A stretch of 61,860 bases of DNA, the filler included, from Asterionella formosa (Eukaryota): the NCBI GenBank assembly GCA_002256025.1. It is 9 parts of 9 records of this genome, joined end to end, with 100 filler letters (N's around TTAATTAATTAA, not from the genome) between each part and the next. Parts side by side here need not be neighbours in the genome. Positions count along the whole stretch, not along the records: positions 6,903 to 13,698 come from NKIB01012606.1; 8 more parts are not named here. One strand, 5' to 3'. The position numbers and the translations under genes are program-made. This document shows, one piece after another, positions 5,462 to 17,795 of the stretch; the stretch's first letter is position 1; each line of letters starts with the position of its first letter. The notes under the pieces are model-generated. The model made no database searches and was not told the origin of the DNA. It worked only from the letters and a program-made list of their open reading frames with translations.

Positions 5462-6748
5462 CTAAGATGTTAACACTTCAAGTGCATCTAATCCTAAGGG
5501 TTGCAGATCAGCATTAGATGAATGAGTTTTCAATGCAGAGAGAATCGTAGCAATACCTCTTTCTTCAGTAATCTTCAACTTGTTGATGTCATTCAAAGCC
5601 AAGTTAAAAAGTGCTGCACAACCATAGTGTTGCACATCAACCTTAGATAAATGAGTTCTCATCGCAGACAGAATCGTAGCAATACCTCCTTCATCAAAAA
5701 TCGTCACCTTGTTGATGTCATTCACAGCCAAGTTACTAAGTGCTGCACAACCATAGTGTTGCAAATTAGAATTGGATAAATGATTCTCCATCACTTTGCA
5801 AACCCTTCTTATAGCTTTTTTAGAAGTCGTCAACATAATGTCGTCATTATCCCAAGCCCTGCTCCAATACTCTGCACCGCCGTCATTATGCCAAGCCAAG
5901 CTCCAAAGTGCTGCACAACCGTATTCTTGGACATAAGAATTGTAAGAATGTTTCTCCATCGCAGACAGAATCTTAGTGATACATCCTTCTTCCGTAATCA
6001 TCCTCTTGTTGTTGCCATTCACAGCCAAGTTTATAAGTGCTTCGCAACCCTAGTGTTGTACATAAGCATTAGATAAATTAGTTGCCATCACAGACAGAAT
6101 CGTAGTGATACCTCTTGCTCCAGCAATTATCTCCTTGTTGTCGTCATTCTAAGCCAAGTTACAAAGTGCTGCACAACCATGGTGTTGCACATCCTCATTG
6201 GAGGATTTTGTCGTCATCGCAGACAGAATCGTAGTGATACCTCCTGCTTGAGCAATCGTCACCTTGTTGTCGTCATTTTTAGAAGACAAGTTCCGAAGTG
6301 CTGCACAACCTTGGTGTTGCACATCAGCATTGGAGAGATGATTTGTCATCGCATACAGAATCATAGTGATACCTCCTTTTTCAGCAATCTTCACCTTGTT
6401 GATCGGTACCAAAGCCAACTGAGCAAGATCCTTAAGACTAGCGAGAACCTCGCTTTTACTATGCATTATTCTAATCTTTGATACATTTTCATCAATCGGA
6501 GAAACAGTGACAGTGTCAATCTCTGGAGCAGGAGGCCCTTGGGTATTCCTACGTTCATAATCGCAATTAGAGCAGCTGCCTAGCAAAGTCTTCCAACCTC
6601 CAATCACATTCCTTTGGCGAAGCAGAACGTCTTGGTGACGATGACAGACATGCAATCCATTCCTAATGAGCTCAGCTTGTACGCCATGCTCATTCATAAT
6701 TGGAGCATCATGGCGGGTAGGGGCGTATGAACCACTGAAAGTCGCCAT
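5462..6748 (-). pseudogene. Armadillo-repeat protein with N-terminal Cys/His motif; two in-frame TAG codons (~6149-6151, ~6051-6053)
   Basis: Tandem ~42-aa repeats GGIxxILSAMxxHxSNxxVQxxGCAALxNLA continue in one frame from 6748 to 5462; the two ORF-track pieces are separated only by two TAG codons. Confidence 0.7.
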
Positions 6749-6802
6749 GTTTGGTTTGATCTCGTTGATTTGGTTGTTTTATGGCATGTGACATGGTCGT
6801 TT

Positions 6803-6902
6803 NNNNNNNNNNNNNNNNNNNNNNNNNNNNNNNNNNNNNNNNNNNNTTAATTAATTAANNNNNNNNNNNNNNNNNNNNNNNNNNNNNNNNNNNNNNNNNN
6901 NN
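6803..6902. other. Artificial contig linker N44-TTAATTAATTAA-N44; also at 13699-13798, 20580-20679, 27475-27574, 34367-34466, 41245-41344, 48122-48221, 54999-55098
   Basis: Identical 100-nt spacer whose core gives stops in all six frames, recurring about every 6.88 kb. Confidence 0.97.
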
Positions 6903-7564
6903 AGTCTTGAAACAAGCTAATTATTTATATAGCTTCAGCTTCTCCTATGTGTTGAAAAAGTCATGCAGGCTCAATGGGGTAAAACTGATTTGGACCAAAA
7001 ACCGTCGACAGCCAATTTTGGGCTACTATAACTAAAGAACTGGTACGAGATTGCAGTGTTCAAGTACGAACAATGCTGTTCCTTATATGCACAGGAAGGA
7101 CTTTGTCTAATACAGATTTAGAATATTACAAATACTCGTCTCAAACCGTGTGATTACCCCGTTTTGTTATGACTATCAGTACAAAACTGAAAGTTTGAAT
7201 GACTCAAAGTTTTTAGGTGGTACCAGGTACCTCCTGACCCAAGAAGGTGGGGTTACAGAGTGAGGTACCAGGTACTTATATCTGGTACCTGGTACCAGTA
7301 ATCTATTGGGTCTGACCATTTTTTATCCTAGACATTACTCAATCTCTTCTCCAGTTACTGGATAAACACTTGCTTGTTGTGTCCGTCTTTCCAGTTTGGT
7401 TGCAATACTCAGCTCAGTTTATATATGCCTAAAATACTAACCCCTACTACCAATTCTACGTCAAAAAAATAAAATGCCCTCATCTGCACTTGATTACGTT
7501 GACCCGAAAAGAGAAGTCAAGATTGTGATTTGCGCTTACTCGTTGCCTCGTATGAAATCCTTTT

Positions 7565-8305
7565 TCATTTGCTCAAATGAACGCCCATGTCAACTTTGAT
7601 CAAAGAAAAGTCATCCTTCTGTGTTCTTCCAAAGGCTTCCATATGATTCATAATAGGACAAGACTGTCCACAATTTTGCTGAGTAAACTTGACATTGGTA
7701 CTTCCCCCCAAATACTTTCTCGTGTCGACGTGAAACAGTCGGACAGTAAATCCCTGCCTCCAAATTCCATCATGTCCCGGCTGCACACATTCCACCACCC
7801 AATCATCTCCACCGTCCCCTACACCGTTCTCACCAAAGCCGGATACTTCTTGTTGCTTACTGAGGGGCGAAGGAATTCCATGGGTGTGCAAGTTTCGTTT
7901 CGTAGCCAAATGAGTGAGTCTGATAGTACTTCCACATTCCATGGGAGTGCCGGGATCGCATTCGCCTGCTTCGTGGTGTGACTTCCGAAGCCACCAGAGG
8001 GCCGACGCATCCGCCTTGTTAGGAATCCACGTTACAATTTGCTGGCCACTGCCTGATCCGAGGTTTTTGTTTTCCGAAAATAGCCAATTGAGTCCCTTGG
8101 ATTCTACATGAGTTAGTTTAATGGCGGATCCGCATGTGACTGGGTCTGTTGGCGAGGTTGTGAGAAGAAATGCCCGCCTTGCAAGGGGAAACAAATAACG
8201 CTACACGAGCCATGTTGTTTACTCACCACCTGCTCCAGCCAGGATGAAAGTTGGTGCCAACAGGGCGCATGCAATGACAGCCAATAAGTTCAAAGAGAGG
8301 TTCAT
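7565..8305 (-). CDS. SDF2: Stromal cell-derived factor 2-like ER protein (MIR domains); intron 8146-8226
   Basis: Signal exon MNLSLNLLAVIACALLAPTFILAG; GTGAGT...ACAG intron; motifs VTCGSAIKLTH, GSGSGQQIVT, CGSTIRLTHLATKRNLHTH, SPLSKQQEVSGFG, VRLFHVDT. Confidence 0.9.
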
Positions 8306-10536
8306 AGTGGAAGGAAGAATGCAATCGAAAGGTAGTGCGACGTTTTGACAAAAACTGCAGGGACTCTTAAACGATCGATATACCCAGGCACATACCGGTA
8401 AGCCACTAGGCAAGTGGCGGTGAGCATGAAATTCTAGCAAACATGTGTGTTTATGCATACCGGTACTACTACTGTATACCGGTGTGTAAAACATCTGCGT
8501 ACATTGTACACGAAAAAGTGTCCTAGACCGACATCCAGTACCACATGCACCACATCGACGTATCATAGGCGACGCAAGAAAGGCAGAATAAACTTTTTAT
8601 GTGTGGTGAGTCATTTGATAGCTATGATACCGGTACCTGGTACCTGATACCGCTAAAGCTACCGGTATACTGGCATAGCGCATACAAAATAATATGTGAC
8701 AAGTACATACTGAAGAAGGTACAAGGTACCTGGGACAAGGTAAGGTGACTCGCCCGAGCTTGGCGAGTGAATGCGAATGATATCGGTACACAGCCGATGG
8801 GGCTAAATAAATTTCTTCGTATGCAATAAATGTACTGTTACATCAATCTAGATTGCAAATCAGGCTACTGGTATGCATTTGCTTTTCATGCTATTTTGGC
8901 AAGCTTGCTTGCTTGTCATTGTCACAATTGAGCCTAGTTTCCTATGGAAATTTGGCGCATGCAATCTCCCAATCTTGGTGGGATTTCATATGGTGCGGGA
9001 CAAGAGTAATTCCATGGTTGAGTGCTCATGTCAGTTCAGTGCTGCTTGATGAAGGTCACCATAGTACTCAAGAACAAGATTGTGATGGGACAACATGAGA
9101 CCATTTGCTGATTCATGATTAAAGTACTATATTATCCATGTTACTTTTTCTGAAAATAAGGCCTCTTTAAATGGTTTTCATGTGAATTTTAACAGTGAAA
9201 TATTTGAGTTGATTATGGAAATAATTGATGTTAAGAATTGCTTCCCTTGAAAGTTCAACTAATATTCAACTTGGAAGGATAGTTCAAGCATCAATCATTT
9301 TCATAGCGCATTCTTGCTATTCTGTTTCTAGACTTGCCGGCTTTGCTCTCTGTGGCCCATATAAGGTAGGGTGGTGGAAGTCACTTCGATAATACATGCT
9401 ATTTCTGCAAGGAAACATTGTCGATTTTTCATGCGCTGTTTTAAAATCGAACGTTGAACTCGTCACTGGAAATATTGATGACCACAATAATTTTATTGAA
9501 GGTTGAACAAATATTCTATTTTAAAATATAATTCATTTGGAATATGGAACATAAATTTCGAAAAGTAATATTGTCAACACAACAAAACGAAATTTCGGGA
9601 TGATACACCAGAATGCGCCAACATTGACCTTGTCAATTGGTAGCTTGCATTTGTCACTGATTTTTTTAAAGTTAGTATGATTGTATTTATGATCCATTTT
9701 TCGTGTGATCGAGAACAGTCGAAGCATCCTTTTGGAGCTAGCTACCTTGAAGAAATATTCAGTCAAGGAACATCTAGTTTGCTTGATACGTCTGTAGGAA
9801 AAATGAAGAGCCTCACCTTCAAGGAACAACAAACAATTCATTTCAGAGACATGCCGGAGTTGCCATGTTTCAATCGAAACTACATTTCAAAATTACATTT
9901 AGTTTAAAAGGCTTACTCTTTTTGAAAACAATCAAGTAAAACTAAGATTGTCAACTTTATAATATATCCTAAATTGCTTGGACTCCCTCTGTTCTGGTGG
10001 TAGAGTTGCAACCAAACTTGAGGTCACTGCCTCTCATGAAGCGCAAGCTGCAATAATTCTCCAGCTAACCTCCTCTTTCAAAATTAATCCGAATTGAATG
10101 GTGCATATAATATATGTTCTAAGTAGCTAGTATAGAAATAGGTGAACCTGACTCGATTTCTTTACATGTATTAGACCCATGTCTATCTCACACTTACCGA
10201 TCATGTGTATAAGCATTGATCATTCAATTCAAACTGTTCGTCTTCCAAATAGTTTACTGGTATATCGTTTGTCTCATTATTGTCGGAGTAATAACGTGTG
10301 GTTATGATAGCTTGCTACATCAAAGTCGACTCATTCGACTCAATGGACTCATTTGACTTAAAGTCTCAACTACGTAGCGGTAGAACCATATCGTAACAGT
10401 CTACCTGATGGTCGACCACGGGGGAATACATGAGTCTCTACGTGATGGTCGATCACTGGGGAAATACATCTGTCGCCTTGACGGCTGCATTGAGTCTCTC
10501 CACCCCAGGACAACGCAACAATCCACCAGCCGCACC

Positions 10537-12012
10537 ATGTCCTCATTCATATCAATTCTAACGAACGAAGTGACTCGTTTGCACGAGTTTTTCGTCGATT
10601 GGTTCACAGGCAAGCTAGAAAGGTCAGACGAGATGCTACAAAGCGCATGTATCAGCTACTTCCATGAGGACTTGCACTTCATTCCACCAGCGGGCATCGT
10701 TCTGTCGAGAGAGCAGCTCCTCGAGCGTCTAAAGAAATCACACAGAACTCGCGACAAAGATTTTGAGATTAATATTCATAATGTTCAGGTACTTCAAGAA
10801 CTTTCGTCCGAAACGACTTTTCTGATTAGCTACCAAGAATGGCAACGACACCAGCAAATGCTGACGGCGAGGCTCACCACTGCTATTTTGGAGATAACTG
10901 CCAGCAAAAAGGTACTATGGAGACATGTGCACGAAACATGGATCGACGGAAAGATTCCAGCTGACAATACCGCAATTGGAAAGCAACCTGGCATTCACAT
11001 ACCGACCGCATCAATTAAACCCAATGAAAACGGCAATTTCGACAAAACAAAATCTGCGGAAAATCATGCTCCATCACCGCTAATTTCTAGGAGACGGCAC
11101 ATATCTCCTCAACTTCCTAATTTTGGTGCTAGACCTATCTTGAGGGACCATGGTTGCATGGCCGGCATTGTCCTTCGAGAAGTACAAGTAGTAACTCTCC
11201 AGGGGACTATTGCCAGTGACAGTTGGTTGACTTCTACAAGTAACGACTTGGAAGCGCTTTGCCAATACAAAAATAGCACTACTGCTTTCTCCAAACGACG
11301 ACTCCTACTTCCTGAAATGGTATTTGATAAGGCTATCGTCAAAATAGTACTCCCCGACAACGTTTCCATTGAATGGACAGCAACTGGGGCACTCCAAGAA
11401 TGGGCCAAAGCTCATCAAGCCATTCCGGTGGGAGCAACGGATAGTCACAACGGGGTATCCGTGCTCAAGGCTCTAGATGCTCAATTATGGTCCACCAAAA
11501 AGGAGGCCACTACGGAATTTCATTATGATTGGTCCTTTAGTACTCCCTATCTTCAAACTGGAGGAACCAACTGGATTCCACTCAAATCATCTGGGATGAA
11601 TCAAGGATTGCTCCTGGATACATCACAACCGATTCTATACTTCGACGAAAATCAACTCTACGAAGATGACATGCATGACAATGGGGTAGTTAGCTTTAGA
11701 ATTAAAACTCGAGTCATGCCCACGTGCGTATTCATCCTCTCCCGACTATGGTTGCGAGTTGACGGTGTTGTGTTGCGGGTCAAGGAAACCCGAATCATGG
11801 TGGAATTTGGATCTCTGGCTGTCCATCGAGATGTGTTGTGGCGAGAGTGTCACTGGGAGAAGCTGAAAAATTACAGCTTGCCGACTGACGTGCGTGCATG
11901 GCGAAATGAAGATGGCGTGGAAACAGCGGCCTGGCAAGGCTTGATCAATCGGTTGCCGCAAGTGTCGTTGCCAGTTGGTATTCCACAGTTCGCAAAATTG
12001 GAGTACAGATAA
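10537..12012 (+). CDS. TIP41: Fusion protein: N-terminal NTF2/SnoaL-like (DUF4440-type) domain + C-terminal TIP41/TIPRL domain
   Basis: TIP41 motifs LPEMVF, YDWSFSTPY, ILYFDENQLYEDDMHDNG, KTRVMP, RVDGVVLRVKETR. N-terminal LHEFFVDWFTG...FIPPAG...YQEWQ...RLTTA...WRHVHETW. One uninterrupted ORF. Confidence 0.85.
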   Translation: MSSFISILTNEVTRLHEFFVDWFTGKLERSDEMLQSACISYFHEDLHFIPPAGIVLSREQLLERLKKSHRTRDKDFEINIHNVQVLQELSSETTFLISYQEWQRHQQMLTARLTTAILEITASKKVLWRHVHETWIDGKIPADNTAIGKQPGIHIPTASIKPNENGNFDKTKSAENHAPSPLISRRRHISPQLPNFGARPILRDHGCMAGIVLREVQVVTLQGTIASDSWLTSTSNDLEALCQYKNSTTAFSKRRLLLPEMVFDKAIVKIVLPDNVSIEWTATGALQEWAKAHQAIPVGATDSHNGVSVLKALDAQLWSTKKEATTEFHYDWSFSTPYLQTGGTNWIPLKSSGMNQGLLLDTSQPILYFDENQLYEDDMHDNGVVSFRIKTRVMPTCVFILSRLWLRVDGVVLRVKETRIMVEFGSLAVHRDVLWRECHWEKLKNYSLPTDVRAWRNEDGVETAAWQGLINRLPQVSLPVGIPQFAKLEYR

Positions 12013-12141
12013 GAATTCTTGCATTGCCTACCGTAGTGGAAGTACTGGTAGTGCACTTGTGTCATAAGTAGAAAAGGGGAGTAAAAATTCAACAAATGGC
12101 TGCTTATGTCTATGTAAGCATATATACTATCACCGTCATGT

Positions 12142-12913
12142 TTATCGTTTCAAATTATTCAACCTCGCCTCCAACTCACTCAAGGCCGGATCCGCACTTC
12201 CACCACCTGCTGCCTCAGCCACTTTCTGAGTAGGCGCACTTTCTGGCTGAGTTTGCATTCCGTTTGGCACATTTGGGATCTCTTCGCCGAAAGATATCCC
12301 AATCTCATCCAAGACTTGCGACACAATTCGGTCTTCTTCCTCTTCATTGTCCTCTCCTTCCATTGCATCGTCAAGCGCATCCCCCATGATTTCTTGCATC
12401 ATGTCCGTCTTTGCATTTTCTCGTTCAAATTCAGCCATCATTTTATTAATTGCTGGTACATCCACAGCCTTGTTCATTTTGTGCATAGCCTTGGCTGTAC
12501 TTGCCATGGCTTCGGCCATAGCTTGGTGCGATTTGACTGTTTGTAATTTCAAGGCACACCCCTGTAAATGGGATCGCATTTCAATAAATTTCGTAATATA
12601 CTGTCGCGTGCGAACCAGATCCTGTCGTATAGTGGCTAGTGTTAGTCTCTTCTTTACTTCTTTCTGTACTACAGATGATAGTATTGGATTCAGTAAGCCC
12701 CGGTTCCGATTCCTCATTTACCTTGGCCATAATCTTGACGGTTGACATTCGCTGCTGTTTGGCCGCACTCTTAATCTCGATCGTCAACCGCTTCTCTTCC
12801 CTTTCCAAGGCCATCTTTTCTCGGTCTAACTCGCGAATCGCTCTCGTAATCATTCGCTTGTTTTCGCGCAAGACTTCCTTAAGCGGCTTTTCCTTTCCGA
12901 ACATGTTGCCCAT
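12142..12913 (-). CDS. VPS2: ESCRT-III subunit Vps2/CHMP2A; intron 12622-12721
   Basis: FGKEKPLKEVLRENKRMITRAIRELDRE, KIMAK|DLVRTR joined by GTAAAT...ACAG intron, C-terminal MIM1 ELEARLNNLKR. Confidence 0.95.
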
Positions 12914-15641
12914 TTTGCGACGGGTTTAAATTAGACTTGAAAGTCGAATGTAATAAGAAACTGGGAAATGTCGCTGTTGGCAAAGCTGATGGGGTACTTG
13001 AGCACCGAAAAGCAGTGTGAATGCAAGAAACAACCGAGGGGGATCCAATGATATGGGATGTTGCGTTATTGCTTCTTCGCTCGGCGTGATCGAGAATTAA
13101 TCGTTTTTCGTTTGTTCGTGTAGTACTTCTCGCCAGTACTGAGATTTCTGTCTATGCAGTGGATGCAACGGCTGCCCACTTCATACATAGCACACAAATG
13201 TCATCCATTTTCTCCTTCGATTGTTCTCCGGTCTGGAATACCGGTACTCCATCAGGTACCAGGTACGGAGTACTAAACCAACGCACAAAAGCCTCCCTCC
13301 CCTGGTACCTGGTAGCAATCCCAACCAATTCATCGTACCTATCGTCTTGCTTTCGATGAGAACTGTTGATGTTTAAGTAATTTGTGGTATCTCTAAGTAA
13401 TTTTTGTGTTGAGGCAATATATGGGCACAGTGCATTTTTCAGTACCCTGTAGTCAATTTTAGGTTCGAGCAGGGACCATCGAGCAACGTCAGGAGTAGTA
13501 GTACATGAATAAAATTTTCATGGGAATGACGAACAAGTTTAAAAGCCACAACACATCAAGCATGAGGGAGCTGTGGATATCAAAAGATCGTCCATACCTT
13601 AGAGGTGATGGCATTAGAGTTACAAAGAAAAGATGCACATTTTCCATTCCTGTAAATGTCCCTTTGTAATTCGGGAATTAATCAATACCAAAACAAATNN
13701 NNNNNNNNNNNNNNNNNNNNNNNNNNNNNNNNNNNNNNNNNNTTAATTAATTAANNNNNNNNNNNNNNNNNNNNNNNNNNNNNNNNNNNNNNNNNNNNTT
13801 GCTTGATGTGGAGGGGAGCAAGTTGCTGTCGATAATACTATTAACACAAACTTATCTCCCATCACTTGTCCCCCCGTCACACTCATTGCTGATTCTGGTA
13901 GTTCTGGCAATTACGCCACTGTTGATTTACCTGTCATCAACAAACGACCTACCACCAACCCTATCACCATTCAACTTCCTAACGGCAACCATGTTAAATC
14001 TACACATGAGGCCGAATTATCTTTACCTATGCTCTTACCTGCTGCTCGTCATGTACACATTGTCCCTGGTCTACACAATTGCTCTTTATTGAGCATTGGA
14101 CAACTATGTGATTCTGGCTACGAGGTACTCTTCACCAAACTACACATGTCTGTCTTATCCGATGGTCATTGCATCCTTCAGGGCCATCGCTCCACCACCA
14201 CTCGATTATGGCATGTCACCACCACCTCAATTGATCCACCATTGCCTACCCCTACCCACTACGCTGCTGCCGCCATTGGCAGTCCCAATGCACCAGCACT
14301 TGTTGCTTTTGCCCATGCGGCCCTCTTTTCTCCTGTTCTCTCCACTTTGGAAAGCGCATTACTCCATGGGTATCTTGTCAATTTTCCAGGTCTAACCTTA
14401 GCTACACTACGCAAACATCCCCCTCATTCCATCGCAACCATCAAAGGCCACCTCGATCAAACACGTCAAAACGTACGATCCACACGTGTGCCCCCAACTA
14501 TCATTGAGCCTGAACTTGCATCCATTCCTACTACCAATGTGCTGGGTGATGCTGATTTCCACCCTGAGGGTCTTGCAACCCCTACCCATATGTGTTTTGC
14601 GTCCATTATTGCACCCACAGGCCAAATTTACACTGATCAAACCGGAAAATTCATACTCCCCTCCAGCACTGGAAACAACTACATCATGATTTTATATGAT
14701 TATGACAGCAACTACATTTTCGTTCAGCCCTTTCATAACCGAACCGCTTCATGCCTCCTTGCAGCATATAAAGCATTACATCAACGTTTGTGCAAAGCTG
14801 TCCTACGTCCCAAACTTCAACGCCTTGACAATGAGTGTTCTACACTCCTCAAAGACTTCTTGGACGCCGAAGCTATTGCCTTTCAGTTGGTCCCGCCGGC
14901 TGACCATCGTCGCAATGCCGCTGAACGTGCAATTCGCACCTTTCAAAATCATTTCATTGCCGGTCTACGCAGTGTTGACAAACACTTTCCTCTCCACTTG
15001 TGGGACCAACTATTAGTTCAAGCTGAACTTACTCTTAACCTCCTCCGTGGCTCACGCATCAACCCCAAACTGTCTGCTTGGGCACAGGTCAATGGAACCT
15101 ATGATTACAACCGTGTCCCCCTTGCTCCACCTGGCTGTTGGGTCCTTGTTTATGCCAAGCCCCAACACCGCACAACATGGGCTCCGCATGCTCTCGATGG
15201 TTGGTATGTCGGCCCTGCTGTGGATTCCTATCGCTGCTACCGCATCTGGATGTGGGACACACGTTCAATCAGAATCTGCGATACTGTCTCGTGGTTTCCA
15301 ACCAAAGTCCACCTACCCTGTAATTCATCCACTGACCTCATCACAACCAGTTTGCAGGACATTGCCTATGCCTTGTTACATCCCACCACTCGGTCTCCCG
15401 TTGCACCACTCACTGCAACCCACAAAGCTGCTCTCCAGCAGCTCCTTGAAATTCTCTCATCGCCTGAGCTCACCCAACTACCCATTGCTTCCCTCCTACA
15501 TCACCCCATTCCATCACTGAGGGTGCCCGGTACAACCACAGCATCCACCATCCCCCTTCTCCCTGATCCTGATCCTGATGCCTGTACACCTTTCCCGGTC
15601 TCTCCCGCCCTCGATGGCAATGCCCAACCACTGAGGGTGCT

Positions 15642-15747
15642 TAACCCTAACCCTACCCCAAACCCTACCGACCCGAGTGTTATTAACCCTACCCCAAACC
15701 CTAACCCTCACCTCGCCGGTAACCCTAACCCAACCCCTAACCCTACT
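15642..15747 (+). repeat. Degenerate telomere-type (CCCTAA)n tract encoding NPNPTPNP in the IN-RT linker
   Basis: taaccctaaccctaccccaaaccct...taaccctaccccaaaccctaaccct...taaccctaacccaacccctaaccct. Confidence 0.8.
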
Positions 15748-17795
15748 CCTAGGGCCCCCCTGCCAGTGGCAGCACGATCCTTCCGGCACCCTCTCGCACT
15801 TATCGCGATGCTGTTGTGCTGCCCAGTCCCCTACCACCTTCCCCTTCGGACACTTATGACACTACCACTGTGCCCAAGAGCCGTCGACCACATGCCAGCC
15901 ATCCCCACACCCAATCTTTGCTTGCCAACTGTGCTCTCTCTGCCCCTCCTCAAACCAGTGCTACTCCCCTGGCCACTAATTTTTGTTTCGATGGCACCGC
16001 TATCAACCCTGACAATGGCAAAATTGCTGGCTATCGAGAATTATTGACTTGCAGCACTGCTCCCCTGTGGGCCACTGCCAACGGCTTAGAAATTGGCCGG
16101 TTATTTCAGAGCTTGGGACCCCATTCTGACATGCCAACGGGTACTAATTGCTGTTTTTTCATTCATAAGCATGAAATGCCCTCACACAAACGCGCCACTT
16201 ACATCCGCATTGTGTGCGCCGATCGCCCTGAAAAAACCATTCCCCAACGCGTTCGTTGGACTGCTGGGGGTGATCGTGTCATTTACACTGGCAATGTCAG
16301 CACCAAGACTGCTGATCTCACTACTGCAAAATGTTTGTTCAACAGCACCATCAGTACCCCCAATGGCCGCTTCATGACTCTGGATTTATCTGATTTTTAT
16401 CTGGAAAGTCATCTTGCACCTGCCGAGTATGAATACGTGCTCATCCCTATATGGATGATCCCCCCACACATTCAAACCCTCTACAACCTAGCTCCCCAAA
16501 TCATTGATGGGCACATCTATGCCGAAATCCGTCGTGGCATGTATGGGCTGCCTCAAGCTGGTAAACTTGCCAATGATCAACTTGCTCAGTTCTTGTTGCT
16601 CCCGCATCATTACCTCCCCTGCCCAGTCACCCCTGGCCTACTATCGATGGATACCACCAGTGATCTCATGTTTACGCTTGTTGTTGATGATTTTGGTGTA
16701 CGTTACACCAAACGTAGTGACGTGGACTGTCTCCTCACCACTTTACGTACCAAATACCGACTGACAACTGATTGGACTGGCTCTCGATACATTGGCCTTA
16801 CACTGACGTGGGACTACGAACATCGCACAGTTGAACTCACTATGCCTGGTTACATTGTTCGTGCTATACAACGATTCACGCACTCCACCCCAACACACCC
16901 ACAACATGCCCCCCATGCCTGGACTGCACCTAGTTATGGCGCTCGCCAGCAATTTGTTGTTTCTGATGTCACCCCTGCCTGTCCTTGACCTCCATGATAA
17001 AACACGTGTGCAAGAGATTCTTGGTACTTTATTGTATTATGCCCGTGCTATTGACTGTACTATGTTGCCGGCCCTTGGTACATTGGCTACACAACAAGCA
17101 ACCCCCACTGTGGCTACCTTGACTGCTATTAGTACTCACCTTCTCAATTATTGTGCCACTCATCCTGAGGCCACACTTCGCTTTACTGCCAGTGACATGG
17201 TACTCCATGTTGAAAGCGATGCTTCCTATCTCTCTGAAACACGTGGTCGCTCCCGCGCTGCCGGCATTCACTTTCTCAGCTGTAAACCCGTGTCTCCACC
17301 TAGCCTCACTACATCCATCCCTCCCCTTAACGGTACTATTTACGTCCACTGTCAAATTCTTAAGGAGGTTGTATCAAGTGCTGCTGAGGCTGAATTAGCT
17401 GCTTTATTCCACAATGGCAAAGAGGCATATGCTATTCGCACCATTCTTGTTGAGCTTGGTCATCCCCAACCTTCTACCTGTATTGTCACCGATAATAGCA
17501 CTGCCAGTGGCATTGCCAATGATACCGTCTGACAAAAACGTTCCAAAGCTATGGATATGCGTTATTAATGGGTACGCGATCGGGTTCGCCAAGGCCAATT
17601 TCTTGTATACTGGAAAAAAGGTAGTTTGAATCGTGCTGATTATTTCACTAAACATCATCCCGCTTCGCCCGCACTATCTCCATTGCCCTCCATCCCTCCC
17701 TAGTCCTCCTAACTATTATGCCTGCTTGGCTTCCGATGCTGATATCATCTCCACCCCCGCTCCTGTTCTTCTGCCTGCATCTGTTGGTGAGGGTG

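Follow-up and report, generated by a model that had tools for sequence, protein, structure and literature searches.

The only TIP41 gene detected in the diatom Asterionella formosa encodes a variant architecture, in which a domain of the S6PP_C/PA1314 family and a linker precede the TIP41 domain. TIP41 is otherwise a single-domain, likely monomeric regulator of PP2A. We propose that an N-terminal NTF2-like domain, gained from a free-standing gene, may pair back to back with its counterpart via the β-sheet, which would turn the normally monomeric TIP41 into a dimer whose two PP2A-binding heads are held on flexible tethers. Such a dimer could raise avidity for the catalytic subunits of PP2A, PP4 and PP6, or could bridge two phosphatase complexes. 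The face opposite the dimer would keep a polar pocket, most likely still with a small polar molecule as its ligand or substrate, held apart from any rigid link to the TIP41 head. As a whole, the reading of TIP41 as a bivalent dimer that retains a small-molecule or catalytic pocket, with no rigid coupling, stands, in our estimate, at about even.

An expressed, lineage-wide fusion in the only TIP41 detected points to a different control of PP2A-type phosphatases in pennate diatoms. The fusion also offers a handle on the S6PP_C/PA1314 family, which has been read only as a plant dimerizer, yet has a polar set, away from the dimer face, that is nearly invariant. The diatom proteins form a natural comparison series, with both pocket and domain, with the domain and a decayed pocket, or with neither. 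If coupling between the two halves is nil, the fusion would be ordinary domain accretion. The novelty is that of a variant TIP41 architecture: neither domain is new, and automatic Pfam annotation already shows them together, precomputed for 12 of the 51 homologues described below. A literature search with most subscription journals outside its scope found no published description of an N-domain–TIP41 fusion.

The fusion gene and its transcript cover

The gene lies at 10537–12012 (plus strand) of the window, the whole stretch of 61,860 nucleotides, filler included, that was analyzed. Its single-exon coding sequence of 491 aa comprises the S6PP_C/PA1314-type domain, the linker and TIP41. The stop-free frame, gap-free RNA contigs and an identical protein, P0002 (ENA assemblies), establish the fusion of TIP41 and the N-domain as a real gene. 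Four of 16 RNA runs were compared with the locus (X1, X3, X4 and X6), X1 and X6 being polyA libraries. Although RNA contigs by nature prove neither a transcript start nor a single transcript, both domains are joined without a gap in one polyA contig in two of the four runs (10523–12110 in X1; 10463–12109 in X6), and X3 and X4 each have a pair of overlapping contigs across the gene. The signal at the fusion gene resembles RNA, since these runs show splicing of the neighboring Snf7 gene and no cover across 10221–10434.

These results bear out several points of the earlier note, which had described a fused frame with neither a stop nor a needed intron and had quoted the motifs LHEFFVDWFTG, YQEWQ and WRHVHETW, all present as quoted. 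It had also raised the prospect of two genes, with transcripts starting inside the linker. Single contigs cross both domains, however, and the linker holds no in-frame Met. Indeed, Met is absent between aa 108 and aa 207 of the fusion frame, and translation is unlikely to start separately within the linker because the next Met, aa 207, is already within the conserved diatom TIP41 segment (from about aa 184). A genome search gave a single TIP41 candidate and a single S6PP_C candidate, both at 10537–12012. Among the best candidates that this search scores, in a fragmented assembly, neither the separate unfused TIP41 for which the earlier note had suggested looking nor a free S6PP_C-type copy was found, the latter also with a free-standing relative as query.

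In the four runs the RNA contigs begin at 10463, 10463, 10468 and 10523. The RNA-covered leader (10463–10536, plus strand) contains no ATG, which favors a start at ATG 10537 rather than at the in-frame ATG 10408. A start at the latter (534 aa) was rejected, as it lies inside a 27-nt repeat pair and outside all RNA contigs, missing cover being weak evidence. The repeats themselves are two direct copies of 27 nt, 89% alike and spaced by 37 nt (10400–10463), just 5′ of the leader, and the first contains ATG 10408.

The 3′ untranslated part (12013–12110, plus strand), seen in the RNA contigs, overlaps RNA of Snf7, a convergent ESCRT-III gene. Within this Snf7 overlap (12013–12250), an X3 contig extends beyond 12113, antisense to the coding region of Snf7, and skips 105 nt with GT..AG borders. 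Allele differences among the RNA runs alter the residue in six of eight coding cases, one of these in the N-domain, numbers too small to speak to selection.

The N-terminal domain, its predicted dimer and its polar residues

The N-domain (aa 1–138; 10537–10950, plus strand) matches the Pfam family S6PP_C (PF08472) at aa 10–119, with 39.2 bits for the whole protein and 42.8 bits for the domain alone against a cut-off of 34.4; its diatom homologues score mostly under that cut-off. Modeled alone, the domain reaches a pLDDT of 93.8 and a pTM of 0.84, and the model matches PA1314 of Pseudomonas aeruginosa (1tp6) with a Z of 20.3 and an rmsd of 1.6 Å over 126 residues. The next row stands at Z 14.8, and the top rows are NTF2-like. 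As modeled, the domain has an NTF2-like fold, and its closest family is S6PP_C/PA1314, not DUF4440 or SnoaL proper. The earlier note had likened it to DUF4440/SnoaL proteins and had proposed a check of the NTF2 fold. The fold stood, with the match to 1tp6, and the label did not, as DUF4440 (PF14534) scores 14.6–16.1 bits, under its cut-off of 25.2. No SnoaL family gave a Pfam match in the fusion protein at E up to 1.

The domain shares with the S6PP_C domain of plant sucrose-phosphate phosphatase (SPP) a PF08472 score over the curated cut-off and the position of an accessory domain on a phosphatase-related protein. It differs in being N-terminal, in sitting on a phosphatase regulator, and in the accompanying HAD domain, for which no Pfam match was found at E up to 1. 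PA1314 carries equivalents of H16, Y99, E101, Q103, R112, E133 and T134 in a profile alignment, but it is a free-standing protein of unassigned function, whereas the diatom domain is fused to TIP41. A review names PA1314 as a promoter-binding factor (PMC10363592), a role that we suspect to be a locus-tag slip. A functional analogy may be drawn with the hub domain of CaMKII, also an NTF2-like oligomerizing domain joined by a flexible linker to a signaling domain (Z 14.0–14.5). Hubs, however, are 12- to 14-mers on kinases with 9–12% identity to the N-domain, and no membership is claimed.

Dimerization, which the earlier note had not considered, is the one function demonstrated in PF08472. According to PMC5113954, removal of S6PPc turns Arabidopsis SPP2 monomeric, its addition dimerizes the cyanobacterial enzyme, and plant S6PPc is both needed and sufficient for SPP dimerization. 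The diatom N-domain is likewise predicted to homodimerize, with a score of 0.69 (runs 0.69, 0.69 and 0.70; best of three controls 0.00), 100% contact agreement and a pLDDT of at least 91. Among solved pairs, 21 of 30 microbial and 17 of 29 eukaryotic ones pass the mark used, and no single chain does (0 of 23 and 0 of 30); among eukaryotic pairs without a solved relative, one of seven passes. As NTF2-like dimers are frequent among solved structures, the pass may stem from model memory. The predicted interface includes residues 51–55, 96, 98, 113, 115, 117, 130 and 132–137, and three of its residues are common to all three fused groups: G53 (30/30), E133 (29/29) and T134 (27/29).

The polar residues H16, Y99, E101, Q103 and R112 are absent from the interface list. 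Their conservation is 97–99% in 145 representatives, a figure inflated by the selection of these representatives for similarity to the fusion protein. None of the five varies in fused group A (11 rows) or fused group B (13 rows), where 22 of the 24 rows have a residue at position 16. Group C (6 rows) has lost H16, Y99 and E101 in 6/6 and kept G53, H130, E133 and T134 in 6/6, so that, of 30 fused domains, 24 have the whole set and six have lost it.

Strand alternation suggests that Y99, E101, Q103, R112 and T114 would point into a cavity opposite the dimer face, and H16 of helix 1 probably joins them. With E133, these residues make up the polar set of the domain, which on sequence grounds suggests a putative binding or catalytic site; an internal salt-bridge network is the alternative. 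Conservation is higher in the pocket than on the dimer face, and dimerization may for this reason serve the pocket rather than TIP41. A ligand-binding or enzymatic pocket coupled to TIP41, as the earlier note had supposed, is thus upheld for its pocket, where a conserved candidate set exists. It fares less well for the coupling, given a disordered and variable linker, loss of the set in 6/30 domains and loss of the domain elsewhere.

The TIP41 half and the linker

The TIP41/TIPRL domain (aa 184–489; 11086–12003, plus strand; Pfam core aa 261–444) opens with a diatom-type SRRRH segment. It scores 130.8 bits against TIP41 (PF04176; cut-off 25), covering model positions 1–174 of 174, and matches human TIPRL 5d9g_A with a Foldseek E of 9.6e-13 and a TM by target of 0.73. 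Residues of the cleft that takes up the C-terminal tail of PP2Ac were mapped through the 5d9g_A alignment, with an offset of 10 in the human numbering inferred from residue names in PMC4973239, where the roles of these residues are described. Human L141, I147, F150, K171 and R173 correspond to L360, I366, F369, K390 and R392, and F180, L182, R184 and R200 to F399, L401, R403 and R419. The conservation of this cleft makes the TIP41 half look functional. At a second site, N68, D71, M196 and D198 are replaced by T281, G284, V415 and E417, while the D71 column holds D in most diatom rows. A two-hybrid test reported in PMC4973239 found binding lost in D71L and M196V, and G284 and V415 at these positions weaken the dimeric-TIP41 reading.

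The likeness to TIP41/TIPRL (PF04176; 5d9g, 5w0w) thus extends to the fold and to the PP2Ac-tail cleft, including R419 for human R200. In contrast, the diatom form has the N-domain, the linker, the SRRRH segment and the altered D71 and M196 positions, and it is a predicted dimer, whereas full-length human TIPRL is reported to form no dimer in solution and to be a likely monomer (PMC4973239). TIPRL and alpha4 together disassemble unmethylated PP2A (PMC5741625), and a Tap42/alpha4 gene is present in the genome. A DNA pattern for the PP2Ac tail gave 55 matches across the genome against 54 for the control, which is no signal. The basic S-x-R-R-H segment (11086–11140) is invariant in 26 aligned fusions and is seen too in unfused diatom-type TIP41s; it lies outside the stretch alignable to human TIPRL.

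The linker (aa 142–181; 10960–11079, plus strand) is disordered. A full-length AlphaFold2 model, built with a 26-sequence alignment, has two confident domains and a linker with pLDDT <50. Its pTM is 0.63, compared with 0.84 when the N-domain is modeled by itself, and so gives no indication of a fixed contact between the domains. In the 26-row alignment, linker identity to the 25 other rows is 0–17%, compared with 18–61% for the N-domain, and linker length ranges from 28 to 673 aa across 33 fusions. Disorder and this range of lengths disfavor direct allostery from the N-domain to TIP41. In one sub-group of the fusions a long acidic linker contains an SH3BGR-like segment (PF04908; 22.2 bits in P0012 and 22.6 bits in P0258, cut-off 21), giving a three-domain TIP41; the insert is visible also in P0018, P0026 and P0259. 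The SH3BGR-like family has a glutaredoxin fold.

Distribution, origin and alternative readings

A homologue search returned 51 proteins, 50 with TIP41 and 31 of these with the N-domain (one identical to the A. formosa protein); another search added two fusions. Among the homologues listed, the sole named fusion elsewhere is that of Seminavis robusta (CAB9506347.1), named unfused TIP41s come from Cylindrotheca fusiformis and from a cluster with Dactyliosolen fragilissimus, and Phaeodactylum and Thalassiosira gave no named match. It is from these relatives that the window is placed in a pennate diatom. In the best 80 of 141 metagenome loci, the N-domain stands in frame with TIP41 in seven, and in the others none occurs within the available DNA, at most 3 kb per side. 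The fusion extends across groups with TIP41 domains only 44–54% identical to that of A. formosa.

The N-domain is missing in 19 of the 50 TIP41-bearing matches, some of them visibly truncated, and centric-type and Cylindrotheca-type TIP41s are without it. Unfused rows inside the fused clade that start mid-domain are probably truncated, and a four-row Cylindrotheca-type group (100/99) looks like true domain loss. The nearest TIP41 relative, P0004, is 74% identical and, as a predicted protein, is without the N-domain. The dispensability of the N-domain in the 19 matches, in the Cylindrotheca-type group and in P0004 weakens the dimeric-TIP41 reading. Group C and the Cylindrotheca-type losses share a clade (100/98 in the careful TIP41 tree), which places pocket decay and domain loss in one lineage.

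In a quick TIP41 tree of 86 rows, all 36 fused rows fall in one 50-row clade (SH-aLRT 99), apart from centric-type and non-diatom rows. The careful tree, from which 31 rows were removed (long branches, gappy rows and near-copies) and which has a single distant, long outgroup, splits off 14 centric-type rows at 85/47 only. The N-domain tree (83 of 253 rows, 136 columns, bootstrap not fully settled) gathers 31 of 32 named bacteria in one clade (95/91), with the fused domains outside it, in four unresolved groups among free-standing proteins. N-domain and TIP41 trees show the same sub-groups. A single gain in early pennate diatoms, followed by losses, is probably the simplest reading, weakened by the 85/47 split and by the four fused groups.

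A C-terminal G-x-x-P motif is found in 10 of 19 free-standing neighbors of the fused domains as against 7 of 78 bacteria. From sequence style and tree position, the nearest free-standing relatives would be eukaryotic, and the fusion probably recruited a gene already in algae, behind which an older bacterial source may lie. The bacterial origin that the earlier note had considered is unsupported as a recent transfer, since the fused domains do not nest in the sampled bacterial clade.

Relatives of the N-domain number 970 representatives at E up to 0.001 and 208 stretches in bacterial genomes, mostly free-standing proteins of 130–160 aa with 27–41% identity. In 80 bacterial loci, 66 of 78 callable frames are ≤210 aa, and the domain partners are unrelated (AHSA1, DinB, metallo-beta-lactamase, hydroxyacid dehydrogenase and beta-propeller). 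Bacterial gene neighbors gave no clue to function in these loci: the top family occurs in 8 of 80, mostly related Gammaproteobacteria, and the others in ≤6, with mixed functions. In eight loci (L004, L005, L007, L008, L009, L013, L027 and L051) the gene lies directly 3′ of a gene for a small O6-methylguanine methyltransferase DNA-binding domain, and folA and thyA are near it in four to five. The domain occurs in tandem in P0050 and C-terminally in P0095 and P0221 (467–483 aa).

The N-domain may instead be a small dimeric enzyme or binding protein with a job of its own and no functional coupling to TIP41 beyond a shared transcript, a possible account that we nevertheless doubt. The mostly free-standing state and short frames of the bacterial domain, its unrelated fusion partners, the lack of any neighbor family in more than 8/80 loci, the variable linker and the failure to find a free copy among the best candidates of the fragmented assembly all agree with it. 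It fits poorly with the six group C proteins, which retain the domain and its G53, H130, E133 and T134 after pocket loss, and with the persistence of the fusion across groups so diverged in TIP41. A metabolite sensor, whose pocket ligand would tune PP2A inhibition in TOR signaling by altering dimerization, localization or the contact made with the TIP41 head, appears unlikely. The conserved polar residues away from the dimer face, which most fused domains retain, would suit such a role. NTF2-like domains have been proposed to regulate fused partners via a ligand (PMC3924330), and the SH3BGR-like insert of one sub-group suggests a protein that accumulates modules. Yet the family is without a known ligand, the linker is disordered with no sign of a fixed domain contact, and some lineages have lost the pocket or the domain. 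A more elaborate and improbable version would make pennate TIP41 a ligand-responsive dimeric scaffold, a small analog of the CaMKII hub, in which a metabolite in the H16/Y99/E101/Q103/R112/E133 pocket sets head–PP2A engagement. If true, the same ligand would also account for what the PA1314 family and the plant SPP tail do.

Iota-type carbonic anhydrases are known in diatoms. An N-domain of this type, or one serving as a CO2/bicarbonate-binding module, has very little in its favor beyond the same fold (7c5v, Z 14.2; 7c5x, Z 13.9). These Z-scores lie amid many unrelated NTF2-like rows and far under that of 1tp6, and a 128-sequence profile searched against the PDB gave no iota-type carbonic anhydrase at E up to 10. 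The (H)HHSS motif described in PMC8425729 is replaced by HVHET in the last strand. It is scarcely credible that adjacent genes were read through by chance or that the assembly is chimeric. RNA contigs are not proof of a single transcript, and some database entries contain one half only (P0004, P0176 and P0082). Against this stand one open frame with no Met across the linker and the same domain order in the 31 TIP41-bearing proteins, the seven metagenome loci and S. robusta; both gene neighbors, moreover, are eukaryotic.

Further from the gene, the minus-strand neighbors upstream (5462–7942) comprise armadillo-repeat frames and a MIR-domain gene. Copia-type retrotransposon frames at 14029–17532, with a retroviral SH3-like domain and the type read from translations, lie beyond the end of the gene's contig.
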